This document shows positions 28,996-42,169 of a stretch of DNA of 64,000 nt, piece by piece. The position numbers and the translations under genes are program-made. Origin of the DNA: Myxococcota bacterium (GTDB taxonomy: Bacteria > Myxococcota_A > UBA9160 > JAFDDA01); the NCBI GenBank assembly GCA_965228475.1, contig OZ245817.1:2464001-2528000 (forward strand), given 5' to 3'. Under the pieces are notes generated by a model. It was not told where the DNA came from. It saw only the letters and a list, made by a program, of their open reading frames with translations, and searched no databases. Each line of letters starts with the position of its first letter. The first letter of the stretch is position 1.

Positions 28996-29072
28996 TGGTG
29001 GCGGAGGAGAGACTCGAACTCTCGACCTCGGCTTTATGAGAGCCGCGCTCTAACCGGCTGAGCTACTCCGCC
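28996..29072 (-). tRNA. tRNA with CAT anticodon, most likely elongator tRNA-Met
   Basis: GGCGGAGTAGCTCAGCCGGTTAGAGCGCGGCT-CTCATAA-AGCCGAGGTCGAGAGTTCGAGTCTCTCCTCCGCCACCA. Full cloverleaf, encoded CCA, paired G1-C72 (not initiator). Ile2 not excluded. Confidence 0.95.
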
Positions 29073-29118
29073 TCTGGGGCCGCGGGCCGAGCGAGCCGGC
29101 CACCGCGAGGGGCGGAGA

Positions 29119-29820
29119 TTAGCGAAGGCGGGTCTCGGGGGAAGCGCCCTCTTCCGGGGCCGCCTCGGCCGTCTTTTCCTCGGCCTTCCCGCTGAAGAGG
29201 AAGTCCTCGATCGTCTCGAGCCGGCGGCGGAGATCCTCGAGGCCGGCCTCGTTGGCGGCTGCGCGGGGGGCCGCCGGAGCGGGCCCCGCTGCGACGGCCG
29301 GGAGCTCCGGCTCCGCCACGTGGGCCGAGCCGGCGACGAAGAGGCTGATCTTGCCGGCCGTGGCGTCGAGCTGCGGGATGATCTCGCCGACCGTGCCGGA
29401 CTGGATGAAGATGCGCCGCGCCCGGGGGTCGTCGTCGTTGCCGAAGGCGGCGGCGTCGAGACACTGCACGTCGAGGGAGGCGCCTTCCCCGAACTGGGTG
29501 AACGCCCCGAACACCGCGTACTGAGCGCCGTTCTCGATGGCCAGGGCAGCGGCCCGCTGGGGATCCGACGTCGCGAGGGCTTCATCCTCGATGCGAACGA
29601 CCGCCAGCTCTGGATTGCGCCCCAGGCGCGAGGCCAGCATGTCCGCGAGGCCCGAGCGGAGGTACGCCTGCTCACCCGAGGTGTTCACCACCATCGGAAG
29701 GATCGCGATCCGCGCGCGCGAACCGGCGGGGGCCGCGGCAGTGACGTCATCGGCACGCAGCTCCGCTCCACCGGCGAGCAAGGCGACTGCAAGAGCGAAC
29801 AAAAGACCCGTAGCGCGCAC
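29119..29820 (-). CDS. Exported protein, TolB-N/CsgG-like domain
   Basis: Signal peptide, RIAILPMVVN...GLADMLASRL...AVFGAFTQFGEGASLD pattern. Confidence 0.6.
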   Translation of the reverse strand: MRATGLLFALAVALLAGGAELRADDVTAAAPAGSRARIAILPMVVNTSGEQAYLRSGLADMLASRLGRNPELAVVRIEDEALATSDPQRAAALAIENGAQYAVFGAFTQFGEGASLDVQCLDAAAFGNDDDPRARRIFIQSGTVGEIIPQLDATAGKISLFVAGSAHVAEPELPAVAAGPAPAAPRAAANEAGLEDLRRRLETIEDFLFSGKAEEKTAEAAPEEGASPETRLR

Positions 29821-29898
29821 GCGATCTCCCAAAGAAGGTCTCCTGGCCGCAACGCGCAGCCAAGTGCGTGGTTTTACTACCAATCTCGATGGGCGGGG

Positions 29899-32892
29899 TC
29901 AAGCTGTCGCGCGGCTCCCCCAAAGAAACTCACGCGCGCGGCCCAGAAGCGGCTTCATCCCGAGAGCCTTCGCCTTCTCCTCCGACCGCAGCGCCATCTC
30001 GCGCGCCTTCCGCCCATCCCCGGGCCCGGCCCGCTTCCGAAGCAACTCCGCATACCCCAGCTCGATGTGCGCGACCCAGGGCGGCGCCTCCGCCGCCTCA
30101 GCCTGCGACAGCGCCTTCTCGAAGAGCTCCTCCGACCGCTCGTACTTGCCAGCCGTCATGGCCAAGCGCGCGAGGTAGTAGTTGACTGGGCGCCAGACGG
30201 CTACGGAGTAGACCACGACAAGGTACTGGTCTTCGTACGGGAACAACGCGTCGAACAACACCTCGGACCGACGCTTGTCGCCGAGAAGGACACATGGCTC
30301 GACGATCAGCGCGACACTGATCAACCACTCAGCTGTTTGCGGCAATCGAACAGCAGATGGCGAGACGATCTTCGCGAGGGCGGCCTTCGCCTCCTCCCGC
30401 CGGCCCGCGCCGGCGAGGAAATGGATTCGCGCGCACTCGTAGGCACGGAGTCGCGGATAGAGCAGCGCTTGGCGCTCGGCGATCGCGACCCCTTCGGCAA
30501 GGCTTCCGATCTCGATCTCTCGATAGAGTCTGTGAATCACAGCCGAGTTCTCGGCGTTCCGGTCGTTTAGCTCTCTCCCTCGCTCCTCAAAGCGTGCAGC
30601 ACACTCCTCCGCATCGCCCCACCTACCCTCTGTCATAGCCTGCATCGCAGAGAAGAGATCCCGATACCACAGCGCGCTTGGGTTGAGAGAAGCCGCGGCC
30701 TTCCTTGAGAACTCCGCGACCTCGACCTCCGCCGCCTCAAACTCTCCGACCTGAAGCAACCCGGTCAACCGATACAGGCGATACACGAGCTCCATCTCCC
30801 GGTCCTCGTTGTCGACAGCATGCGCGATCGCCCAACTCGCGAGCGCCGCCCTCTCAGACGCCCCACCTGGCCCCCAGCAGGCAACCTCCCTGGCCGTCGC
30901 AGCGAAGACTTGCGATTCCGGCGAGCCCGCCACTGCCGCCTTGTCCAACGCTTCTTGCGCAAGCCCCACACACTCGTCGTGTCGCACGGACCAATACAAT
31001 GCTATCGCCAGCTGACCGCAAACCTTGGCTTGAAGCTCTAGGGGAACCCGAGCGCCGAGTGAGCGGACTTCTTCAAGTGCCTCAATCAAGAATTCATCGA
31101 CTACGCCCGCCTCGATCGCGAAGAAGTCGGGCGCGTATCCGAGTGCCGCCCGGGCCAGCGTCTCTGGATCACCACACGCTCGTGCCAACTCCGCCGCGCG
31201 CTTGCAAGACCTCTCGGCCTCCCGGGGAAGGCCTGCTCGCCGCTGGGCCGTTCCTAGCCTTATCAGAAGATCCGCACGCAGCATCGGATCTGCCGGCCCC
31301 GCCCGATCTAGGAGATCGACGGACTCTTGCAGATACTCGACTGCCTCGGGGAACCCAAGATTCCTTGCCGACCACTCCGCAGCCTCTTCAAGCGTCTTCA
31401 GCCAGCCATCTGTGTCATCAAGCCTTCCCGCCGCGAGCCCATGCGGAGCCGCCAAACATGCGACCTCACCGACGAAGACACCATGTATGTCTCGCAGGGC
31501 TGAGACGACCCCCAGATGTGCACGAGAACGCTCCTCAGCAGAGAGAGAAGAGTACAGAACGTCCCTAAGAAGACCGTGCGCGAACACAAACTCGAGAGGC
31601 CCAACCTGACGGAGGATTGCCGCACCGACTCCCTCCTCGAGTTCCGGCAGAACCTCCGCGGGCTCTCGCCCTAGCAAGCGACTCAGGACCCCCACATTCG
31701 GCTCTTGCCCCACGACAGCCGCCGCCTGCAAGACATCTCGAGTCTCGGCTCTGAGGCGATCGAGTCGCGCTTCGAGCATCGCCTCGACGCCTGGAGCTAC
31801 CCAGCCCACCGGAACTGATCTCATCCCCGCCATCTTCATCTCATGGGCGAACTGCTCAAGAGCGAAAGGATTTCCTGCGGTTCGCGCCATCAGCTGGTCC
31901 ACCGTATCCTCGTCAAAGCCCTCGCAGCCAAGCCCACCCAAGAGGGAAATTCCCTCTCCTCTAGTCAGCCCGTGCAGGGCCACCGTGTTGACAGGGCTTA
32001 GCCTCTGGATCTTCGCCGCCAGCTGCGCCGGCATTCGCTCGAGCTCGTGCGATCGAAATGACGCGACCAGCCGAACACCAGCGGGACGCAGCTCCCTTGC
32101 CAGAGCTTCGAAGAGCACGATAGATGACGGATCACCGACCTGGAGGTCGTCGATCGCGACCAAGACAGGCGAATCCACTGCCAGATCCGACAGCGCCTGC
32201 CCAATGGACTCGAACGCATCAAAGAGAATCATGCTTGCGGAGCTCGCCGCTTTCGCCTGCCGGGACTGCATCGCAGAGAGCTCCGACTCCCAGCGATCAG
32301 CCAGGCCGAGTGATCGAAACACCTGCTGCCACGGGGTATACGGAGCGCCTCGGCGCGCCTCAGAACAGCGCCCCACCGCAACGCGACATCCCCTCCGTCT
32401 AGCCCGCAGCGCGAACTCTTCTATCAGTCGAGTCTTTCCTATTCCCGCCTCTCCCAGCACCAGCGCAACTCCGGTCATCCCAAGATCGAGATCGATCACG
32501 CTTGTCAACTGCGAGAGCTCAGTTCTCCTCCCTACAAACCCTTGAGACTCGGTTCGCAGCTCGATGTTCTGATGATCGCTGTCAGCTTCTCGGACATTAA
32601 CGAGCCACCGATACCCCTTCCCGTACACTGCCTGGATCGTTGTAGGATTGTCCGCCGAGTCGCCGAGGGCAGTCCTGAGTGAATTGATGGCAGTCGGAAT
32701 AGTCGAAGCAGCGATCGCCCGCCCTTGCCAGATCTCCTCTTGAAGCTCGGCTTTTCTGACTACTCGATCGCGATTGCGGATGAGATAAAGGAGCAAGTCA
32801 AAGACCAACTGCCCAATCTCTACGGGCTGGCCGCGACGAAGCAGAAGCCGCCTGCCTTCGTCCAACTCGAAGTCCGAGAACTGAAAATGCAT
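29899..32892 (-). CDS. Winged-helix (Trans_reg_C) + AAA/STAND ATPase + TPR transcriptional regulator
   Basis: FSDFELD...LLLYLIRNRDRVV...LRTALGD...IQAVYGKGYR, Walker A GEAGIGKT, Walker B IDDLQ, GNPF, FAHGLLRD, helical repeats. Confidence 0.9.
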   Translation of the reverse strand: MHFQFSDFELDEGRRLLLRRGQPVEIGQLVFDLLLYLIRNRDRVVRKAELQEEIWQGRAIAASTIPTAINSLRTALGDSADNPTTIQAVYGKGYRWLVNVREADSDHQNIELRTESQGFVGRRTELSQLTSVIDLDLGMTGVALVLGEAGIGKTRLIEEFALRARRRGCRVAVGRCSEARRGAPYTPWQQVFRSLGLADRWESELSAMQSRQAKAASSASMILFDAFESIGQALSDLAVDSPVLVAIDDLQVGDPSSIVLFEALARELRPAGVRLVASFRSHELERMPAQLAAKIQRLSPVNTVALHGLTRGEGISLLGGLGCEGFDEDTVDQLMARTAGNPFALEQFAHEMKMAGMRSVPVGWVAPGVEAMLEARLDRLRAETRDVLQAAAVVGQEPNVGVLSRLLGREPAEVLPELEEGVGAAILRQVGPLEFVFAHGLLRDVLYSSLSAEERSRAHLGVVSALRDIHGVFVGEVACLAAPHGLAAGRLDDTDGWLKTLEEAAEWSARNLGFPEAVEYLQESVDLLDRAGPADPMLRADLLIRLGTAQRRAGLPREAERSCKRAAELARACGDPETLARAALGYAPDFFAIEAGVVDEFLIEALEEVRSLGARVPLELQAKVCGQLAIALYWSVRHDECVGLAQEALDKAAVAGSPESQVFAATAREVACWGPGGASERAALASWAIAHAVDNEDREMELVYRLYRLTGLLQVGEFEAAEVEVAEFSRKAAASLNPSALWYRDLFSAMQAMTEGRWGDAEECAARFEERGRELNDRNAENSAVIHRLYREIEIGSLAEGVAIAERQALLYPRLRAYECARIHFLAGAGRREEAKAALAKIVSPSAVRLPQTAEWLISVALIVEPCVLLGDKRRSEVLFDALFPYEDQYLVVVYSVAVWRPVNYYLARLAMTAGKYERSEELFEKALSQAEAAEAPPWVAHIELGYAELLRKRAGPGDGRKAREMALRSEEKAKALGMKPLLGRAREFLWGSRATA

Positions 32893-32959
32893 CGGCGATC
32901 AGTCTAAGGCGAGGGGAGGCCGGTCTGCGCCGAACCGATGCAAAGAGCCGAAAAGCAAG

Positions 32960-33000
32960 GTAGAAACCCTCGCTAGATCATCAGAAAGCCTCAGAAGCCC
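32960..33000. repeat. Direct repeats (gtAGAAaccc, tcAGAAagcc, tcAGAAgccc) upstream of wHTH regulator
   Basis: Copies at 32960, 32981, 32991, about one or two helical turns apart. Confidence 0.45.
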
Positions 33001-33018
33001 CGCAAGGCGCAGGGCGCC

Positions 33019-34485
33019 TCACCCGATCGAAACCGAGACCCGAAGCTCCTCGCCCGCGGGGTTGAGTGGCCCGACACTCAGCGGTCCAAAGAAGCCGGCA
33101 CCGAGCTCGGAAGCGGCTGCCAGCTCAAGGGATTCCATGACCCTCGAGGCCACCAGGTCGGGCGCCACTCCAGGATCGAGGGGCACCACCAATGCAACCC
33201 GCCCACCCGCGATGGTGACCCCAATTGTGCCACCTCTCCTAGCGAGCCCGACACAGAGCACGAGGAGCAAAGCAAGGCAGAGAGTGAGACGAGACCTCGG
33301 CCCCGAGACTTTGCCCGACTCGACGTCCGTCGCGATTGAAACCCCGGCCCGGCCCACGGCCGCAGCGATCCCCTCAGCAGCCTCGGAAAGCAGCTCGCTC
33401 AAATCGCACAAAGTGCAAGCCTCGATTCGATCGCTGCGGACCTCAGCGATTAAGTCCTCCAAGACCCTCGCTGGACGGAACCCTGAAGCTAGCAATAGGG
33501 CCGGCGCCGCAAGGACCTTGAGCTGATCGACTTCGACCGACACCGATTCAGCCGGCTCCATCGAGCGAGCGTTCTCGATCGCAAGAGAAACCTGAGAGGC
33601 TAAGCCCTCCAAGAGTGCGCGTTCGGCTGCCCGAAAGGACCTCCCGCCCTTCCGATTGTCAACCACCAACACGCCGACCGCGCCTCTTGGCCCCACAAGC
33701 GGAACAGAAAGGATCTCTTCTGCGGCTAGCTCCACAGCCAGGGTTCTGCCGACCGGGCCGAGCTCCGTCGCGGTCTCTGCAACGACCAACTTCGTCTCTC
33801 CCGAGCGAACGGATTCGAGCCACGGCCCCCCATTTGCCTCGTCGATCGAAAGCTCACAGGCAAGACCGCCATCGGGGTCGGAGCTCTCTGAGCTAGCCAC
33901 CATCGTCAACCGGACTCCTGCCTTGTCGAGGATTCCGATCATCGCAGCATCGAACCCAAGATCTGAGGCCACAGCCCGGACCACAAGCTTTGTGAGGCGG
34001 TCAAGGTCGGATTCAGAGCCGATTTGGTGGCTAATCGATCGGACGGCTGTCAGTTCCCGGAGAAGCGAGTCCTTCTCAGACTCCAGGGCATAGAGGTCGA
34101 TGGCTTGCACCACCACCTGCCTCATCTGATCGGGCGACCAAGGCTTCGGGATGTACCGGTAGATCTTCCCGTGGTTGACTGCGTCCGCCAGGGTTTCTGC
34201 GTCACCGTATGCGGTGACCAAGAGGCGCACTGTCCTCGGGTCGACCTCCCGCACCCGAGAAAGAAAATCGGTTCCCGTCATCTCGGGCATTCGGTGGTCG
34301 CTGAGCACGACGGAAATAGGGTGTTGATTGATCAGGTCGAGCGCGTCAGCGCCGCTCTCAGCCGTATAAATCGTGAAATCTCGACGAAAGGCGAGTTCGA
34401 AGGCGCGCAGGTTCGCCCTCTCATCATCTACGTAGAGGACAGGGAACTCTCGTCGATCCACGAGGCGTTGCGGCTCAGGCTGCAT
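33019..34485 (-). CDS. Response regulator REC + GAF + degenerate HATPase-like tail
   Basis: LYVDDE, SDHRMP, TAY, KPW; GAF SVPL...GVLVVDN...LASQVSLAIENAR; tail lacks H, N and G boxes. Confidence 0.88.
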   Translation of the reverse strand: MQPEPQRLVDRREFPVLYVDDERANLRAFELAFRRDFTIYTAESGADALDLINQHPISVVLSDHRMPEMTGTDFLSRVREVDPRTVRLLVTAYGDAETLADAVNHGKIYRYIPKPWSPDQMRQVVVQAIDLYALESEKDSLLRELTAVRSISHQIGSESDLDRLTKLVVRAVASDLGFDAAMIGILDKAGVRLTMVASSESSDPDGGLACELSIDEANGGPWLESVRSGETKLVVAETATELGPVGRTLAVELAAEEILSVPLVGPRGAVGVLVVDNRKGGRSFRAAERALLEGLASQVSLAIENARSMEPAESVSVEVDQLKVLAAPALLLASGFRPARVLEDLIAEVRSDRIEACTLCDLSELLSEAAEGIAAAVGRAGVSIATDVESGKVSGPRSRLTLCLALLLVLCVGLARRGGTIGVTIAGGRVALVVPLDPGVAPDLVASRVMESLELAAASELGAGFFGPLSVGPLNPAGEELRVSVSIG

Positions 34486-37261
34486 CAATGTTCTCTTCTG
34501 GGAGCCAGATCTCGAAGCAGGCGCCGTCGCCTAGAACAGAAGACACTCCGATCGTCCCGCCGTGGCTCTCGATAACCTGCCTCGAGATCGAAAGGCCGAG
34601 CCCCGTGCCCTTCCCTGCACCTTTTGTCGAGAAGAACGGGTCGAACAGTCGCGCTATGTCGTCAGGCTCGATCCCGGGCCCATTGTCACGAATCGCCACT
34701 TGAACCCCGCTGGCGTGGGCCTCGATCGATACCGAGATCTTTCCACCCCCTCCTTCTTCGAGAGCCTCCGACGCGTTCTTTAGGATGTTCAGAAGGACCT
34801 GACCGATCGCCTGTGGGTCTCCCACCACAAGAGGAACGCCCTCTGCGCAGCTAACCGCGACAGAGACGTTCTTCTCTGCCATGGAGTGCCGCAAGAATCT
34901 CGAGACAGAATCAACAGACTGGACGACGCTGAAATGGACCTTCTCACCGAGGGCTGGCCTGGAGAAGTCTCGAAGATCTCCTACAAGCTTTCCCGTTCGC
35001 TCGAGGCCTTCTTCAACGATACCGGCGAGCTCTATCACCGCGCTGGACGTATCGCTCAACTCAGCCAGCCGCAACCGCTCGGAAATCTTGGCTTTCTCTT
35101 CACCTGACAGAGGCGGCCCGCTCTCTTGAACCAGCCCACAAACCTCACGAGCTGCCGATACGAGATCCTCGATGTAGGGCTTCATGGCACGGACCGCATT
35201 CACGGAGTAGTTCACAGGGTTGTTGACTTCGTGAGCGACACCAGCTGCGAGTTCGCCTACCGCTGCCAAGCGCTCCGATTGTACGAGCTGGGCCTCCGCC
35301 TCCTTCAGCTCATCCAGCGTCGTCTCAAGTTCGTCGTTCGCATGCTCTAGAGCGCGGTTCCGTTCCGCAAGCTCAGTCTGCAGCTGCCTGAGCCGTACCA
35401 AGCTCCGCACCCGGGCGAGCAGCTCCCGCGAGTGGAAGGGCTTCGTAACGTAGTCGTCAGCCCCCAACTCAAGGCCCTCAATCTTCATCTCGCGCTCTGC
35501 CTTGGACGTGACCAAGATCACCGGCAGAGCTTCAGTCGTCGAATCACATTTCAACGTCTCACAGAGCTCAGTCCCCGACATCTCCGGCATCATCACGTCC
35601 GTCAACACCAGATCTGGCATTCTGCGCCGCACTTCCTCGAGGCCCTCCCGTCCATTCTTCGCCGTCCGGACTGCGAACTCACTCGACAGGACGTGAACCA
35701 AGAGCCTACGCATATCCGGGTTGTCCTCGCAGACCAAGACGTCCGGCATGTCCGCTCCGCCCTGGCCAGCCTGCGCCCCCTCATCGTGCGCACTCCCTTT
35801 CGTACGCTCCCATCGGTCTACCGATCGCTCTAGATCCAGGAGCTTGCTCGCCTCCTCATGGTCCCGCGAGAGCTGAGCGTCCAAATCTGCGAAGCCTGAG
35901 ACCTGCGACCTTTCCCTGGGTGCATCCGCAAGGACATCTTCCCTCGCAACGTCCTCTTCTCCTTGTGGCAAGGTCACAGCCACGTTGGTCCCGAAGCCTA
36001 TACCCTTGCTAACCGCCCAGATCTTTCCACCGTGCAGCTCGACCAGCTCTTTCGAGAGCGCCAGGCCAATCCCCGTTCCTTCGTGCCGACGAGTTGACGA
36101 ACCATCGGCCTGGGCGAAGCGATCGAAGATCCTCTCGCAGTCACGAGGCTCAAGGCCGATGCCTGTATCCGACACTTCGAGCCTTATTCCATCACCATCA
36201 GCACGAGCGCAGACAGAGATCGACCCGCCCGAATCCGTGAACTTCAATGAGTTTCCAACTAGGTTGATCAACACCTTCTCGAGTGCATCCGGGTCCGCGT
36301 TGATCGAGAGAGACTCATCGAACTCGCCAACGCTGAGATTGACTCCCTTCTTGCGAGCCAGAGGCTGAGCTCCCGACACGATGTCTGCCGCAAGCTGAGC
36401 CGGCGATACCAATCGGCGCTCGATCCTAAGTTGATCACTCTCAATCTTCGCCAGATCGAGCAGGTTATTGATCAGCTTCAGTAGCCTGAGCGCATTGACG
36501 TGCATCGTGCGCAAGTAGTCGCGCTGGAGCGGGTTGACTTCGCCGAACTCACCCCCCAGAAGGCTCTCGAGCGGAGCGAGGGTCAACGTAAGGGGCGTGC
36601 GAAGCTCGTGGTGGACGTTCGCAGTGAATCTCGACTTCTGCTGGTCGAGCTCCCGCAGGGTGTCTCGCGCCTTCTCGACCTCTCGACGCCGAACGAAATC
36701 TCGAAAGCGGCTGTTGTCGATAAGCGCGGCACTAGCGATGCAGACGATTCCGGCCGAGAACAAGAACACCGAGCTCATCAAGAATTCACGCCAGGGGATC
36801 TCCCATGGCAAGACCAACGGAGAGCATGCATAGAGTCCGAACGTGCAGACGCTCAAGACTGCCGCTTCTCGTACTGAGAACGGCAACAGGACAGGAACGC
36901 CCGCAAGGAAGAGGATTAGCCCGACGTAGTAGCCGCCAGAGGGCTCGCCGGTACCGAAGATCACCATTCCCAGCATCGCTTCAGTCGACAGAGTCAACGC
37001 CCACTTCGAGACAGGCGCAGGAACCCCACTGGAGGGCGCGAAGAACAGCCCGATCAGTCCGACTTGGAGAGCGCATCGAACCAGGAAGAAGTCTGCGAAT
37101 TGCGCCGGGAAGAGGTAGAAGTCAGAGAAGACGAAGAGGACGTTGACGACAGCAGTCGTCACCACTCCGGTGCGAATGTAAGAGCTTCCACCATAGTGGT
37201 TGAGCTCTCGCCAGTACGCTTCGTAGGAAGCTCTGCCTGCCTCTTCTACCAAACCGGCCAT
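34475..37261 (-). CDS. Membrane hybrid sensor kinase: 6 TM-HisKA-HATPase-REC-HisKA-HATPase
   Basis: HHELRTPL, NLVGNSLKF, DTGIG, GTGIGL; REC EDN/TDVMMP/KPF; second kinase AHEVNNP, NILKNA, DNGPG, GTGLGL. Confidence 0.93.
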   Translation of the reverse strand: MAGLVEEAGRASYEAYWRELNHYGGSSYIRTGVVTTAVVNVLFVFSDFYLFPAQFADFFLVRCALQVGLIGLFFAPSSGVPAPVSKWALTLSTEAMLGMVIFGTGEPSGGYYVGLILFLAGVPVLLPFSVREAAVLSVCTFGLYACSPLVLPWEIPWREFLMSSVFLFSAGIVCIASAALIDNSRFRDFVRRREVEKARDTLRELDQQKSRFTANVHHELRTPLTLTLAPLESLLGGEFGEVNPLQRDYLRTMHVNALRLLKLINNLLDLAKIESDQLRIERRLVSPAQLAADIVSGAQPLARKKGVNLSVGEFDESLSINADPDALEKVLINLVGNSLKFTDSGGSISVCARADGDGIRLEVSDTGIGLEPRDCERIFDRFAQADGSSTRRHEGTGIGLALSKELVELHGGKIWAVSKGIGFGTNVAVTLPQGEEDVAREDVLADAPRERSQVSGFADLDAQLSRDHEEASKLLDLERSVDRWERTKGSAHDEGAQAGQGGADMPDVLVCEDNPDMRRLLVHVLSSEFAVRTAKNGREGLEEVRRRMPDLVLTDVMMPEMSGTELCETLKCDSTTEALPVILVTSKAEREMKIEGLELGADDYVTKPFHSRELLARVRSLVRLRQLQTELAERNRALEHANDELETTLDELKEAEAQLVQSERLAAVGELAAGVAHEVNNPVNYSVNAVRAMKPYIEDLVSAAREVCGLVQESGPPLSGEEKAKISERLRLAELSDTSSAVIELAGIVEEGLERTGKLVGDLRDFSRPALGEKVHFSVVQSVDSVSRFLRHSMAEKNVSVAVSCAEGVPLVVGDPQAIGQVLLNILKNASEALEEGGGGKISVSIEAHASGVQVAIRDNGPGIEPDDIARLFDPFFSTKGAGKGTGLGLSISRQVIESHGGTIGVSSVLGDGACFEIWLPEENIDAA

Positions 37262-37357
37262 TCAGACCAGAATCGGTAGAAAACACAGCTTTCTTGAGCT
37301 GCTATTGCTGATACCGCAGCGCGCGGTCGCAGCTCCCAGCTGACGCAGGGGACTTGG

Positions 37358-39856
37358 CTAACTGGGCCTTATCGCTGACAGAACGATCGCCTGCGGAGGG
37401 TCACCGAACCCACCGGATGTACGCACGGACGAGAAACCTGCCCGCCGAACCATCTCCTGCAGCTCGACTTCATCCCAAAAGTGGAACCGACCGGCCTCCT
37501 CGAGGTCAAGGATCCGAGCGGCGTCGTTGAGAAACCGACGCAGCGACTCATCAACCGCAGTCTCGCCAACACTCCCTAGCAACTCACTCGCTCGACCGGA
37601 CCTCAACTCCCGAACACCCTCGACAAACAGTCGAGAGATGTCCGCGTCCTTCCGGAGCGTCGAAAGGACCAGCCTCCCCGACGGACGAAGCATCCGATAC
37701 ATCAGCTTAATCTGAGCTTCGGGTTCTTCAACGTAGGAGAGAAATAGGGACGCGAGAAGGGCATCGTACCTGCCCTCGAAGCCACCTGCTGAAACCACCC
37801 CTGTATCGGCGAGGTCGCATTCGATGTAACGAAGAGAGACGCCATGAGGCGTGCCGACCTTTTCGATTCGAGTTCTTGCGTGCTTCAATGCCTCGGGAAC
37901 GAGATCTATCAGGTCAACCGTGATTCCCTGCGGAGCCCCAGACTCCAGCAGCCTAAGCGGGAATGCTCCTGTGCCAGCGCCGACATCCGCGACCCGATCC
38001 CCAGAGCCTAGGCCTAAGGCGAGAATCTGCGTATCCATGAGGCGCTGGTACGGCTCGATCGCATTCATCAAATCGATCCCGAGCCCCCCGTCCCGGCCGA
38101 GCAGGTAGTTGCGCCAGAAGTCCACGGCATTGATCGATGGTGCGCCGACCCGTGCTCGCTCTGCCTTCCTCTTCAGCTCCAATGCCGAAACATCGGGAAG
38201 GCCAGGAGCAAGCTCCATTTCCGTAGCCATCTTTCCGATCTCGACTGCGATCAACTGGAACACTTCGATCGCCTCTTGACTACTCCGCAGCTGATGGCCA
38301 GTGGGTACCTCAAGCAGTTTTCGCCTCGACGTATCGCCGAGCGCCATAATCTCGCGGACGCGGGTCAAGTCTAGCCACGCATCGAACTTACCGTGGATCC
38401 AGGTGATTGGAACGTCGATCTCAGCCATCTCTCGACGAGAGTCTTCCAGAAAGGCTAAGTCGTTCCCAATCGCGTCACTCGCGACCCTATCGATGTCTGT
38501 CGTTACGCCCATCAGTTCCTGAATTCCGAACTCCAGTCCCTGCTCGGCGCCACCGATGAAGTCCAGCCCACCCGAGACCTTCTTCAATCCTGACTGGAGG
38601 TCGGGAGCACCGACAACGCTAACCCAACCTTTGATGAGACCAGTCTGGTCTGCCACAACAGCCCTCCTAGCCTCGATCGATGCGGCGCTGAAGCTGACCA
38701 AAATGGCGGTTTGGGTGGCGAACTCAGGAGAGGTTGAGAAGTAATCAACCGTGGCCTGAATGTCCTTCACGCCCTCGGAAATCGAGAAGTGCAGATTCTC
38801 CATTCCTTCGGTCAGGCACTCGGGGTCATTGTGGGACTCACCTCTTTTCCGAACACCATCGAAACGAACGACCACCACAGGAACGTTTGCTTTCTCGAAG
38901 GTGGCCAGAATCGTCGCCGCCAAGGGGAGCAAAGTCTCCTTCGTCCGACCCCAAGCAGGGGGGATAACGACCAGCGTTGCCCCTCTTCTTTCCCCGACAC
39001 TGTCAACGATCGCCACGATCTCTTCGCCGCGGGAATTTGGGTACCTCACCACCTCGATACGTTCCGAGGTTCGTTTCGCTCGCCCGAGGGCTCCACGAAT
39101 CACAGCACTCGCGCCAGCAGCTGCAAGGCTCAGCTTCTGCCTGATCCGAGAGCCTGCTGGTAGTTGGAGAATCGAAGAACGGCGCTCCACTGGGTAGAGA
39201 TCTGTGGGTCGGACAGAACTAGTAGACAACCCAACCCGGCTCCACCCGGCCCGCGTGGGAGCCGCGGACTTTCGGCGCAGCTGTGCCCAGCGAAGCGCCT
39301 CTCCATGAATCTCCACTCGAAACGAGGACTCTAAGTCCTGCGCGCCTCTTGTCGGCAGCTCAACTTGAAGGCCGTCCGCCGAGAGATCAACAACCCGACC
39401 TCTAGCTAGAGTCGCGCCAGACTCTGAGTAGATCGATACCTCTCGCGCTCCCCCCTCATCAACTCGGCTGCGGCGCCGATCCCGGCGCTCCGCGCGGTAG
39501 ATCCTACTGGGCATGGGCGCGACCACGCGGTCCGCCACCCCACAATCAGAACTAGGCAAACAGACGAAGAAGTACGGGAGGCCGTCCAGAAAGAAATTGA
39601 GAAGCAACGAACTCTTCCGTGCCTTGTCAAAGTTCTTAGTGCTGAGCGATACGGAGTCGGACCCGACTGTCTCCAAATACGCGGTCTCGGGATCATCTGA
39701 GCGATGCCTAGCCCCAGAGAGGGGAATACGCTCGCGGCACACCCTGGCTAGAACCGCCTGGATCTCTTTGGAATCCTTGATTGCGCTGGCGTGAAGCTCA
39801 TCAATGACACCCGGAGCTATCGGCTGCCCTAGGCGGTACGTAGGAGAGGTCTGCAC
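37358..39856 (-). CDS. Fusion protein: YcgR-like N domain + PilZ + LuxD-like alpha/beta hydrolase + class I SAM methyltransferase
   Basis: ERRDRRR and DLSADG (PilZ); RFDG...GES, VSFSAAS, HGKFDAW, TGHQL (triad); VADVGAGTG, YDALL, LRPSGRL (MTase). Start GTG 39856 after AAGG. Confidence 0.85.
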   Translation of the reverse strand: MQTSPTYRLGQPIAPGVIDELHASAIKDSKEIQAVLARVCRERIPLSGARHRSDDPETAYLETVGSDSVSLSTKNFDKARKSSLLLNFFLDGLPYFFVCLPSSDCGVADRVVAPMPSRIYRAERRDRRRSRVDEGGAREVSIYSESGATLARGRVVDLSADGLQVELPTRGAQDLESSFRVEIHGEALRWAQLRRKSAAPTRAGWSRVGLSTSSVRPTDLYPVERRSSILQLPAGSRIRQKLSLAAAGASAVIRGALGRAKRTSERIEVVRYPNSRGEEIVAIVDSVGERRGATLVVIPPAWGRTKETLLPLAATILATFEKANVPVVVVRFDGVRKRGESHNDPECLTEGMENLHFSISEGVKDIQATVDYFSTSPEFATQTAILVSFSAASIEARRAVVADQTGLIKGWVSVVGAPDLQSGLKKVSGGLDFIGGAEQGLEFGIQELMGVTTDIDRVASDAIGNDLAFLEDSRREMAEIDVPITWIHGKFDAWLDLTRVREIMALGDTSRRKLLEVPTGHQLRSSQEAIEVFQLIAVEIGKMATEMELAPGLPDVSALELKRKAERARVGAPSINAVDFWRNYLLGRDGGLGIDLMNAIEPYQRLMDTQILALGLGSGDRVADVGAGTGAFPLRLLESGAPQGITVDLIDLVPEALKHARTRIEKVGTPHGVSLRYIECDLADTGVVSAGGFEGRYDALLASLFLSYVEEPEAQIKLMYRMLRPSGRLVLSTLRKDADISRLFVEGVRELRSGRASELLGSVGETAVDESLRRFLNDAARILDLEEAGRFHFWDEVELQEMVRRAGFSSVRTSGGFGDPPQAIVLSAIRPS

Positions 39857-39867
39857 GAGGGCCTTTC

Positions 39868-40056
39868 TCAGTTGAGACGGAGCCTGGAAGGGAACGCAAA
39901 TCCGGCCGTCCTCGACCGATTCCGCCGATCCATCCCGTTTCGCAGGGGCGTGTCGAGCGCTCGCAGGCGCGAGAGGATCTCGACGACCGCGGCGCGGTCT
40001 GCGATGGATTGTCGGTGGAGGGCGCCGAAGGTCGGCTGAGGATTCAGCTGGGTCAT
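39868..40056 (-). pseudogene. 62-aa truncated paralog of the N-terminus of the downstream fusion protein
   Basis: Good RBS (GAAGAAGGA). SIADRAAVVEILSRLRALDTPLRNG aligns by eye with AIKDSKEIQAVLARVCRERIPLSGA. Confidence 0.55.
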
Positions 40057-40173
40057 GCATCCTTCTTCCGTGAAGTCCGCGCGTAGCCAAGTGGTTGCGA
40101 AACCGCATTCTACTTACGGTAGAAGAAGGGATTCAAGCTGTAGTTGCGAGTTTGGGGTGATAACAACGCGGAC

Positions 40174-41181
40174 TCAGGGCCCGCGGCTGTCCACCTTCTC
40201 GAGCTTCACCCCGGCGTCCGAGAGGATCTCGAGGGAGCTTTCCCCCAGCGGGTAGTCGCCGTTGTAGATCACGGCCACGATGCCCGCGTTGATGATCATC
40301 TTGGTGCACTGCAGGCACGGAGACATCGTCGTGTAGATCGTGCCGCCGCGGACCGGGACCCCGTGGTACGCGGATTGGACGATGGCGTTCTCCTCGGCGT
40401 GGGAGCACAGGCAGGTATCGAGCCCCGCCCCGCTCTGCCCGAAGGCGTTGCAGCGCGGGCAGCCCCCTTCGTTGCAGTTGCGCACGCCGCGGGGGGTGCC
40501 GTTGTAGCCCGTGGCCACGAGCCGGCGATCGATCGTGATGACGGCCCCGACCTTGCGCTTCACGCAATTGCTTCGAGATGCAGCCACCTCGGCAATGTTC
40601 ATGAAGTACTCGTCCCAGTCAGGGCGCTCGAAAAAAAGCGAGCGGGAGAGGATGGTCTGGATCGCCTTGTGGAGTTCCTCCTTGCCGCCGTCGTTGCGCA
40701 GGGTGAAGTCCGCCAATGCCTGGACGGCCGCCATCTGCTGCCCGGCGGCGTTCTCGCCCCCGCGCTCCCGGCCTTCGAGCTCCTTCAGGCGCTCGAGGGT
40801 CTCCGGGTCACCCGGGCGGGCCCTGCCCTTCAGGCGCTCGAGCCGGGTCTCCATGTCTGCGTCGACCCACACGAGCTTGAAATCGCCGTGGGCCTCGCGA
40901 AGGGTCTCGACCTCCGCGGGGTGGCGAACGGAATCGACGACGTAGTTGCGGTCCGGCGCGAGCTTGTCGAGCAGGCGGACGGCCAACGCCCCCGGGCCGT
41001 AGCGCTCGCGCAGCTGGGTGCCGACCTCGATCATGCGCTCGCGCGATTCTTCGAGCCCGCGCTCGCGCAGCTCGTCGCGCAGGACGTCGGAAAGCGAGAG
41101 CGCATAGAAGCTCCGGCTTTCGAGGTACGCCATGACCTCGCCCTTGCCTGCACCGTAGGGCCCCGAAAGACCGAGAATCAT
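40174..41181 (-). CDS. P-loop NMP-kinase-like domain fused to dCMP deaminase
   Basis: GLSGPYGAGKG, DSVRHPAEV; then RPDWDEYFM, RSNC, TGYNGTP, HAEENA, PCLQC. Confidence 0.92.
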   Translation of the reverse strand: MILGLSGPYGAGKGEVMAYLESRSFYALSLSDVLRDELRERGLEESRERMIEVGTQLRERYGPGALAVRLLDKLAPDRNYVVDSVRHPAEVETLREAHGDFKLVWVDADMETRLERLKGRARPGDPETLERLKELEGRERGGENAAGQQMAAVQALADFTLRNDGGKEELHKAIQTILSRSLFFERPDWDEYFMNIAEVAASRSNCVKRKVGAVITIDRRLVATGYNGTPRGVRNCNEGGCPRCNAFGQSGAGLDTCLCSHAEENAIVQSAYHGVPVRGGTIYTTMSPCLQCTKMIINAGIVAVIYNGDYPLGESSLEILSDAGVKLEKVDSRGP

Positions 41182-41287
41182 GGTGTTCCCCCCTCCCCTC
41201 ACTTATCCCGGTGCGCTGCGGGGGTCAAGCGTTCCGGCTCCGGACCGGCCTCGGCGAGCTTGGCCGGCCCCAGGAGCGGAGACTCGC

Positions 41288-42028
41288 TCACTTCCGGCGG
41301 CTGGCGAGAAGCAGAAGGCCCGCGAAGCCCGTGGCCATGGCCAGCAGGCTGCCCGGCTCCGGTACCGGCAGGCTCACGTTCGTGAATGTGATCGTCGTGA
41401 AGATCGGGAACTGGTTGCCGAGGACTGAGACGAAGGTCGGCGAAACCAGCGTAAGCGGGCCCGAGGCGCCCGCTAACGTGACGATGTTCGTGCCCGAGTT
41501 CACCGCGCCGACTCCCGTGCTGAAGACGGCGGCGTCTATCGTGAAGGGCGAGGCCGTGGCACCCCCCTGACCGAGCTGAGCCGCGTTCAGATCGACCGGG
41601 ATCGGGACGATGACCGGAGTGAAGACGTTCACGAAGCCGTCGAGGCCCATGGCCCCACCGACACCGCCACCCGTGTTGCAGGCGATGCCCGGTGCGACGC
41701 CGCCACCGCACACTTCCCCTGGAGCATGGACCGTCACGCCACCGGCCGAGAACGTGCCAGCCTGGTTGCTGATGGTCATGGCGGCAATCGAGTTGATCGC
41801 CGTGGTGGAGGTTACGGGCACGACGACCGGAGCCGGCAGCGAAACGGTGCCAGCAGCAATCGACACGGTGCTACCGGACACCGAAACCGTTCCGACTTCC
41901 GAGAAGGAAATCGGGCTCAAGCCCTGAATCGTCAGCGTGAAGATGATGTTCGTCGCTACCGGCGCCGCCTGGACGACTCCGCTCACCAAGAGCGACCACG
42001 CGGCCACGATTCCGAAGAACCAACTCAC
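41288..42028 (-). CDS. PEP-CTERM sorting-domain surface protein
   Basis: RBS GGAGGAG then GTG, signal peptide ...VQA, Thr/Gly/Val-rich body, C-terminal VPEPGSLLAMATGFAGLLLLASRRK. Confidence 0.92.
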   Translation of the reverse strand: MSWFFGIVAAWSLLVSGVVQAAPVATNIIFTLTIQGLSPISFSEVGTVSVSGSTVSIAAGTVSLPAPVVVPVTSTTAINSIAAMTISNQAGTFSAGGVTVHAPGEVCGGGVAPGIACNTGGGVGGAMGLDGFVNVFTPVIVPIPVDLNAAQLGQGGATASPFTIDAAVFSTGVGAVNSGTNIVTLAGASGPLTLVSPTFVSVLGNQFPIFTTITFTNVSLPVPEPGSLLAMATGFAGLLLLASRRK

Positions 42029-42169
42029 GAAAGCTCCTCCCAGCCTGCGGCAACGCCGTCTCCGGACGCCGCGACGACTGACGGAGCCTTCCGCGCCGCG
42101 GCTCCCGAGGCCGCACCGGCCTCGAGTCACGACCCTAACACAGGACTCGGGCGGGCTCGGTACCGGCGC

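Follow-up and report, generated by a model that had tools for sequence, protein, structure and literature searches.

What would an enzyme do that carries a predicted sensor of cyclic diguanylate (c-di-GMP), a LuxD-like hydrolase and a methyltransferase on a single chain? This question is raised by a gene at 37358..39856 of the window, our name for the whole stretch of 64,000 nucleotides that was analyzed (Myxococcota bacterium, contig OZ245817.1, positions 2,464,001 to 2,528,000). The gene, like all window features named below, lies on the minus strand, and it encodes a fusion of 832 aa (P0001) composed of a PilZN-PilZ module, a LuxD-like hydrolase domain and a class I S-adenosylmethionine (SAM)-dependent methyltransferase. 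The original prediction, made from the letters of the DNA, held that c-di-GMP controls the release of a fatty acid from acyl carrier protein (ACP) or coenzyme A (CoA), that the acid is then O-methylated in cis, and that the messenger level is thereby tied to signal synthesis. Passages of PMC11298618 and PMC6989110 describe PhcB, which makes methyl 3-hydroxy fatty acid signals that are sensed by the kinase PhcS. Judging from comparative evidence, the fusion probably makes a methylated fatty-acyl signal under the control of c-di-GMP and has taken the place of PhcB.

The open reading frame of the fusion begins with GTG at 39856, and its stop codon ends at 37358. All motifs quoted in the original prediction were found in this frame, at or near the places given for them. 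DLSADG lies at 39371-39388 exactly as predicted, and ERRDRRR is present at 39470-39490, slightly off the predicted range of about 39471-39500. VSFSAAS was located at 38678-38698 and HGKFDAW at 38375-38395; in TGHQL the His occupies 38294-38296, and DVGAGTG lies at 37967-37987. A Pfam search of P0001 gave a clear C-terminal class I methyltransferase, a sub-threshold PilZ match and no match in the middle. The AlphaFold model of the fusion has a mean predicted local distance difference test (pLDDT) score of 90.5 and a predicted template modeling (pTM) score of 0.91. The stretch 29000-41500 is identical in the contigs of two sequencing runs (either may be the source of the assembly), and the gene is also carried by another strain, about 99% alike.

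We scored 8000 candidates and found 352 homologous proteins at E ≤ 0.001. Thus, the frame is not a chance one, and the fusion is a genuine, conserved enzyme family. Most of the 120 homologs listed are 41-53% identical to the query over 97-100% of its length, with sizes of about 830 aa. We aligned 112 full-length proteins, namely the query and 111 homologs (its own record and eight shorter ones were excluded). The PilZ residues R125, R129 and G162, the triad residues S390, D492 and H521, and D624, G626, G628 and G630 of SAM motif I are invariant (112/112); residue 157 is D or N in all 112, and S159 is kept in 108 of them. When the hydrolase part was searched against representatives of 50% clusters, 430 proteins were found, and forms of 950-1200 aa appear among the 150 listed. 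The Ser/Asp/His triad and an RxxxR motif are invariant in 52 aligned long forms. We also scanned 32 distant proteins, most of which have one to three additional PilZ matches and one of which has a receiver domain; the methyltransferase is missing from a single one, which is a partial protein.

A profile of 59 hydrolase domains was compared with the PDB, and its best match was 1THT, the structure of LuxD (E = 2.4 × 10−8), with the next match at E = 1.1 × 10−3. A Foldseek search also ranked 1THT first (E = 3.1 × 10−13). Structural realignment gave Z = 29.1 for 1THT, with a root-mean-square deviation (rmsd) of 2.7 over 276 residues and 17% identity; esterases came next, with Z ≤ 25.7. The alignment with LuxD extends through the C-terminal extension to residue 573. 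On profile and fold, the domain at 38138..39067 therefore groups with LuxD rather than with unrelated esterases, as had been proposed. It has a Ser-Asp-His triad with a non-GxSxG elbow, as in LuxD. S390 (38687-38689), D492 (38381-38383) and H521 (38294-38296) pair with positions 114, 211 and 241 of 1THT (residues counted in the profile alignment), and we take Asp211 and His241 to be the members of the LuxD triad that accompany Ser114. Passages of PMC6279958 describe Ser114 as the triad residue that is acylated, by way of an acyl-serine intermediate.

The fold neighbors of the domain also bring in another explanation. The two catalytic domains might oppose each other; that is, the methyltransferase would make a methyl ester, the hydrolase would cleave it, and c-di-GMP would set the direction, as a switch on a signal or on a protein. 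The closest folds after LuxD are carboxylesterases and lipases (Z 22-26), and Hydrolase_4 is weakly matched by 45 of the 59 domains at E ≤ 1. In addition, the PhcB-like genes that occupy the same place in other genomes (described below) lack a hydrolase domain; a thioesterase is thus no strict requirement of that place. However, LuxD stands clear of the esterases in both E-value and Z, the non-GxSxG elbow is common to both proteins, and the alignment runs on through the C-terminal extension. We regard opposed domains as quite improbable, and the signal-synthase reading, in which the LuxD-like domain would free an acyl chain, is kept here.

The N-terminal module consists of a YcgR-N-like beta domain (39497..39814, residues about 15-120), which is beta-rich in the model and has a Foldseek match to 3KYF, and a PilZ domain (39212..39496), which is indicated by the Pfam PilZ match (E = 0.013) and by motif conservation. 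RxxxR and D/NxSxxG are the defining motifs of PilZ c-di-GMP receptors. Both are present in the fusion, RxxxR within 39470-39490 and DxSxxG at 39371-39388, as in receptors of the YcgR type. A Foldseek comparison with PilZ structures had been suggested together with the prediction; it matched the fusion model to 3KYF, a PilZ/c-di-GMP complex, over 214 columns (E = 1.8 × 10−10, rmsd 12.7).

The C-terminal domain (37361..38134, motif I at 37967-37987) was recognized as a class I SAM-dependent methyltransferase by Pfam, conservation and profile. Its profile was compared with the PDB, and the best matches were N-, O- and C-methyltransferases alike; therefore, the chemistry is not readable from the sequence.

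Directly downstream, 96 bp past the fusion gene, starts a gene for a putative receptor of 928 aa (34475..37261). It is built from a six-helix PhcS-type sensor (about residues 1-199), a kinase, a receiver and a second kinase. We examined 86 genome loci and found a same-strand hybrid kinase downstream in 53 of the 58 that have at least 6 kb there; one of the five kinase-less loci has a divergent receptor. Another 80 loci came from metagenomes; they have 27-54% identity to the long query and form 17 clusters at 70% identity. Of the 64 metagenome loci with at least 1 kb of downstream sequence, 51 have the same sensor there, as do 13 of the 17 clusters. Of the four sensor-less clusters, three stop early or carry inserted genes ahead of the contig end, and one has unrelated neighbors.

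Residues 1-199 of the receptor form six helices in the model (pLDDT 94.4). MASE8 of Pfam is weakly matched by 7 of 60 sensor members. The best fold matches of the sensor model are human adenylyl cyclase 5 (AC5, Z = 17.4), ImcA (Z = 16.6) and another membrane cyclase (Z = 15.7). LvrA of Leptospira was considered for the receptor kinase as its top NCBIfam match and was rejected, since this match is far below the cut-off and lies outside the sensor. Mirror-tree comparisons of the methyltransferase with the sensor and the kinase core gave ρ = 0.38 and 0.14 (n = 43) and ρ = 0.26 and 0.01 (n = 30), and those of the hydrolase gave ρ = 0.56 and 0.48, and 0.45 and 0.40. These values, which followed an 18-locus trial, are confounded by linkage and kinship, and they give a weak hint that the divergence of the enzyme domains follows that of the sensor a little more closely than that of the kinase core, which is encoded in one gene with the sensor.

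The output end of the receptor is variable. The window receptor ends in a second kinase, as do those of 48 of 61 short-form loci; an HD-GYP domain carrying both of its motifs is found in 36 of 59 metagenome receptors (15 are cut off) and in 1 of 13 long-form genome loci. Established definitions of the HD-GYP motifs were used in these counts. The complete enzymes beside HD-GYP receptors have an N-terminal receiver in 20 of 30 cases, and those beside double kinases in 0 of 6.

Here, we explored which enzymes accompany this sensor in 301 sampled genomes of the phylum, a set that includes kin, so the genomes are not independent. The fusion is present in 33 genomes (by the hydrolase profile), a PhcB-like gene in 70 and the sensor in 120. 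The sensor lies within 5 kb of the fusion in 31 of the 33 genomes, and within 5 kb of the PhcB-like gene in 59 of the 70. Both enzymes occur together in one genome, compared with 7.7 expected; the two lie there in separate cassettes, and each cassette has a receptor of its own. We then took 20 sensor loci from fusion-less genomes, and most of them have another enzyme gene upstream of the kinase. The enzymes seen in this slot are a family of about 500 aa with a PilZ-like part, a methyltransferase and a KPLGYxGD motif, an 820-aa PilZ protein accompanied by a separate methyltransferase, and a polyketide synthase.

The 500-aa family led to a plasmid operon of Paraburkholderia graminis that encodes a methyltransferase, a kinase and two receiver proteins. 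Members of the 90% clusters to which these proteins belong bear the source-given names '3-hydroxypalmitic acid methyl ester biosynthesis protein', 'sensor histidine kinase PhcS' and 'PhcQ', and PhcB homologs in Paraburkholderia are mentioned in a passage of PMC6989110. The profile of the 500-aa family matched the PhcB-named Paraburkholderia protein with E = 2 × 10−74. The sensor profile, built from neighbors of the fusion only, matched the PhcS-named kinase with E = 2 × 10−29 over positions 9-194 of 196. The window kinase can be aligned with the PhcS-named protein over the sensor and, with a stronger match, over the second kinase (34%). Three genomes that belong to the same order as the window have a PhcB-like gene ahead of a kinase that is 42-48% identical to the window's; twice a shared MMPL gene lies in between, and once the winged-helix regulator too. 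In a quick tree, one sensor beside a PhcB-like gene groups with the short-form receptors at 99% support; the position of the PhcS row, a long branch, is uncertain in this tree.

In an alignment, the N-terminal part of PhcB-like proteins from Myxococcota pairs with the PilZ domain of the fusion (94.8%), and c-di-GMP gating may thus be a trait common to the enzymes of this slot. A shallow alignment of the N-terminus of Paraburkholderia PhcB gave no PilZ signal. Genes for PhcB-family methyltransferases, many of which have a PilZ-like N-terminus, were seen next to PhcS-type sensor kinase genes across Myxococcota (L198, L202-L205, L208-L210, L215, L217, L220, L222), an apparently unreported spread.

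Orthology of the fusion methyltransferase to PhcB was ruled out. The pairwise match has E = 1 × 10−5 over 149 columns, the profile match is confined to positions 45-163, and an unrelated Sinorhizobium enzyme scores above the PhcB-named protein with the fusion methyltransferase profile. The KPLGYxGD motif, which the annotated PhcB and its Myxococcota relatives have, is absent from the fusion (A3 consensus). The similarity is therefore at the level of the fold only. Because the two enzymes share a slot and a receptor type, occur together in a single sampled genome and have only this fold-level methyltransferase similarity, PhcB seems to have been replaced by the fusion as a non-orthologous counterpart. 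The fusion gene itself lies directly upstream of a PhcS-type sensor kinase, the arrangement of a Phc-type cassette. Taken with the PhcB-family synthases in the same slot elsewhere, this receptor neighbor gives comparative support to the idea of signal synthesis, which the original prediction had put forward as a guess.

The exchange of enzymes also bears on the nature of the product. The LuxD-like domain might be an acyltransferase to an amine or alcohol acceptor, with N- or C-methylation, so that the product would still be a signal, one other than a fatty acid methyl ester. This would agree with the acyl-serine intermediate that LuxD forms (in passages of PMC6279958), with the N-, O- and C-type matches of the methyltransferase profile, and with the PilZ enzymes of unassigned class, accompanied by a separate methyltransferase, and the polyketide synthase that are also found in the slot. 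However, no conserved acceptor gene was found in the cassette, and the products are suggested to be similar by the way PhcB-family genes and the fusion replace each other next to receptors that belong to one well-supported clade. We hold the acyltransferase to be very unlikely.

As observations in their own right, the 820-aa PilZ proteins (L214:7195-9654 (-) and L212:7766-10273 (-)) have a C-terminal domain of no Pfam family and may be a third candidate synthase. A receptor gene of the same type is directly preceded, on its upstream side, by a type I polyketide synthase gene (L216:6934-12999 (-)).

Exporter genes and lipid enzymes near these receptors could be explained in another way. The cassette might serve the c-di-GMP-controlled making or remodeling of a membrane or surface lipid, which MMPL would export, and the kinase would then sense the state of the membrane, not a diffusible signal. 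In the 48 loci with long flanks on both sides, an MMPL exporter gene was found 30 times, a receiver protein 26 times and a winged-helix/AAA regulator 17 times. A cyclopropane-synthase-family gene lies beside PhcB-like variants, and the abstracts of PMC13660987 and PMC8659556 give RpfF, the thioesterase in diffusible signal factor (DSF) signaling, a membrane role. However, the window has no MMPL gene, MMPL had no match in the 80 metagenome loci, and the receptor is almost always present. Elsewhere, a known signal-synthase family occupies the slot. This lipid explanation is, in our view, unlikely, and a methylated fatty-acyl signal is still preferred.

A mechanism can be proposed for such a signal. 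Given the intact motifs, c-di-GMP would bind the PilZ module and switch the enzyme. The LuxD-like domain would free an acyl chain from ACP or CoA, and the methyltransferase would use SAM to methylate the freed acid, in the simplest case yielding a methyl ester, a step suggested by the genomic context only. The product would leave the cell, aided in many relatives by the MMPL-family exporter, and would bind the six-helix sensor of the adjoining hybrid kinase, with which the enzyme is paired in genomes. The kinase may then relay to the receiver-kinase partner, as in the window, or to its own HD-GYP domain, as in distant loci, and so feed back on c-di-GMP and on the synthase. The HD-GYP domain at the receptor end in distant loci would close the c-di-GMP loop.

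Several points weigh against this proposal. P0001 has no match to PF02273 (Acyl_transf_2), the LuxD family of Pfam; PF02273 is matched by 17 of the 59 hydrolase domains at E ≤ 1 (best 1.4 × 10−9), and its cut-off is reached by 11 of the 32 distant relatives. P0001 is also below the Pfam PilZ cut-off (PF07238, 16.2 bits versus 22.5), with long relatives above it. Methyl-ester formation is not derivable from the methyltransferase sequence. One cluster of seven metagenome loci has no receptor adjoining the enzyme, and the window cassette has neither an MMPL gene nor an HD-GYP output. The six-helix fold is common to adenylyl cyclase anchors and a diguanylate cyclase and is no proof of a lipid ligand. 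The p-value of 0.001 for the mutual exclusion of the two enzymes is overstated by related genomes that are not independent, and describes a pattern rather than a test. The names PhcB and PhcS are automatic annotations of Paraburkholderia proteins, and not those of the experimentally studied Ralstonia proteins. Finally, what the comparison of sequences, structures and neighborhoods establishes is the architecture, the conserved residues, the pairing of genes and the exchange of the slot with PhcB-family genes; all of the chemistry and signaling is inferred from these.

The remaining genes of the cassette follow the receptor. A receiver-GAF protein (33019..34488) overlaps the kinase gene by 14 bp, and its C-terminal kinase part is decayed: an H-box and an ATP-lid motif were not found there, whereas HisKA and HATPase are kept in a relative. 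A winged-helix/AAA/TPR regulator (29899..32892) is a variable cassette member (17 of the 48 loci with long flanks). In metagenome loci, an AMP-binding gene of the acyl-CoA-ligase family stands directly after the fusion in 11 of 80 cases, and a B12 radical SAM enzyme gene lies between fusion and receptor in 6 of 80. These inserted genes (L150, L155, L173, L188 and others) could possibly tailor or recycle an acyl product. The metagenome loci L122 and L124-L129 form a cluster of 1113-aa forms with housekeeping neighbors and no adjacent receptor.

The family is spread widely. The labels of 72 genome loci are mostly those of Myxococcota or Deltaproteobacteria metagenome-assembled genomes, with some others, and a 1080-aa form occurs in cultured Nannocystis strains, with WP_224197710.1 and WP_267688366.1 as records of the long form. 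Further homologs are labeled Nitrospirota, Acidobacteriota and Spirochaetales. The host genome has a single copy each of the enzyme and the sensor. Many long forms (P0216 and others) have an insertion of about 150-200 residues within the methyltransferase domain, and a second hydrolase match (G304:C34:80146-80940 (-)) belongs to an even longer fusion, whose open frame has 1663 aa. Look-alike clusters in the ESM Atlas have LuxD and methyltransferase domains in 555-563 aa, with no room for a PilZ module, and are leads only. On plasmids, stand-alone relatives of the methyltransferase were generic enzymes only, the neighborhood of the top match was unrelated, and tblastn with hydrolase and sensor queries gave no matches. 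A search for PF02273 in 250 genomes of another phylum gave no matches, but the controls were equally silent. An initial metagenome scan with one protein as the query gave no relative.

Base composition gave a view of the history of this locus. The stretch at 30-40 kb has a GC content of 58-63%, compared with 70% for the genome, and the GC content at third codon positions (GC3) of the four cassette genes is 0.65-0.69, compared with 0.81-0.92 in the flanks. A 63-codon relic of the 5' end of an older fusion-gene homolog (39866..40056) lies upstream of the fusion, and its GC3 is host-like (0.81 over the homologous part). It matches the N-termini of fusion homologs (best E = 2.4 × 10−9 in a small homolog set). 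The database gene call of 900 aa (P0002, ATG at 40060) probably starts too early, because its frame crosses this relic, whose own frame differs, and because AGAAAGG stands directly before the GTG. The relic starts 117 bp past the flank gene, near the distance of 133-344 bp at which the fusion match starts in six relative loci. Of 60 loci with an N-terminal match, no other has such a duplicate. The relic is bridged by contigs of another run and of another strain. A tandem internal duplication or an assembly error as its origin was excluded by the diverged homology, the host-like GC3 and the bridging contigs. A sigma-70-like promoter match (40107..40136, 9/12) upstream of the relic is a consensus match only.

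The upstream flank is a fusion gene of a nucleotide-kinase-like part and a deoxycytidine monophosphate (dCMP) deaminase (40174..41202), a landmark outside the mechanism. The genes flanking the cassette recur in relatives, in 26 (the landmark gene) and 25 of 73 loci, and therefore the site of the cassette is ancestral. The low GC3 of the cassette together with the host-like relic at this site suggests that a native cassette was replaced by a foreign one. Beyond the flank gene, 41288-42130 of the window encodes a small secreted-looking protein ending in a PEP-CTERM motif.

A wider proposal, which we put forward tentatively and hold to be possible but somewhat short of an even chance, is that the fusion represents an undescribed class of autoinducer synthase, switched directly by c-di-GMP, in which thioester cleavage and then methylation take place on one chain. 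It would be one of several interchangeable PilZ-gated synthases that are paired with one family of PhcS-type receptors across Myxococcota and other phyla. Together with HD-GYP receptors, it would form a two-gene closed loop of inner messenger and outer signal, and the cassettes would be swapped between strains like signal specificity types.

Within the literature searched, the fusion is an undescribed enzyme family in a variant of Phc-type lipid signaling. No description of PilZ, LuxD and methyltransferase together was found in the full texts searched, with most subscription papers and supplements outside the search. In the same full texts, no two of PilZ, acyl_transf_2, PF02273 and myristoyl-ACP were mentioned together, and phcB or phcS had no mention in Myxococcota literature among the matches listed; PhcB and PilZ were named together in four listings. 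If the proposal is true, this is a new family of lipid signal synthases, and c-di-GMP would have a direct route to set signal output. Phc-like pairs of synthase and receptor would be present in about one-third of the sampled genomes of the phylum (92 of 301 have the sensor and one of the two enzymes), far from the Betaproteobacteria in which Phc was studied. The enzyme would also be a candidate source of the ligand for an orphan family of six-helix sensors that share the fold of adenylyl cyclase anchors. Because the long form occurs in cultured Nannocystis strains, the proposal is testable now.

Each part of the cassette can be compared with a known system. The N-terminal module is like YcgR-type PilZN-PilZ receptors (3KYF) in its two beta domains and its motifs. 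Unlike them, the fusion adds two catalytic domains, and in its relatives the PilZ matches number up to three, with a receiver at the N-terminus in some cases. With the LuxD myristoyl-ACP thioesterase (1THT, PF02273), the middle domain shares the fold, the non-GxSxG elbow and the aligned Ser/Asp/His; however, it is fused between PilZ and a methyltransferase, whereas LuxD proper is a stand-alone gene in the lux operon, and no lux genes were found in the 25 conserved neighbor clusters scanned.

The sensor model has its fold in common with the six-helix anchors of AC5 and with ImcA. Passages of PMC12414865 describe effects of fatty acids on adenylyl cyclases, with no mapped site, and leave a receptor role of the anchor open. 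Human AC5 apart, the six-helix design recalls that of CqsS and LqsS, whose synthases are enzymes unrelated to the fusion. The description of CqsS and LqsS in passages of PMC4821796 likens their six-helix designs, with lipophilic ligands and weak sequence links between clusters.

The DSF/Rpf system (RpfF, RpfC, RpfG, RpfB) is alike in logic. Passages of PMC4504480 describe a fatty acid signal released by a thioesterase, an HD-GYP output that lowers c-di-GMP, and a linked acyl-CoA ligase. In both systems a signal would be freed from acyl-ACP by a thioesterase and sensed by a multi-helix hybrid kinase, and distant fusion loci have HD-GYP and ligase genes. However, RpfF has a crotonase fold without PilZ or methyltransferase, whereas the fusion has an alpha/beta hydrolase fold; here the HD-GYP domain is fused to the receptor, and the predicted c-di-GMP sensor is on the synthase itself. 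This likeness is an analogy, not homology.

The Phc system (PhcB, PhcS, PhcR/PhcQ) differs from the window cassette in that the fusion has PilZ and LuxD-like domains and is not a PhcB ortholog, and in that the receptor is a 928-aa double-kinase hybrid and not a simple kinase of 445 aa. In both, however, an enzyme that bears a methyltransferase is followed by a kinase with a homologous sensor and then by a receiver-kinase protein. Phc is thus a precedent for methyl ester signals together with this receptor type (passages of PMC11298618 and PMC11960443; for PhcR, PMC9102662).

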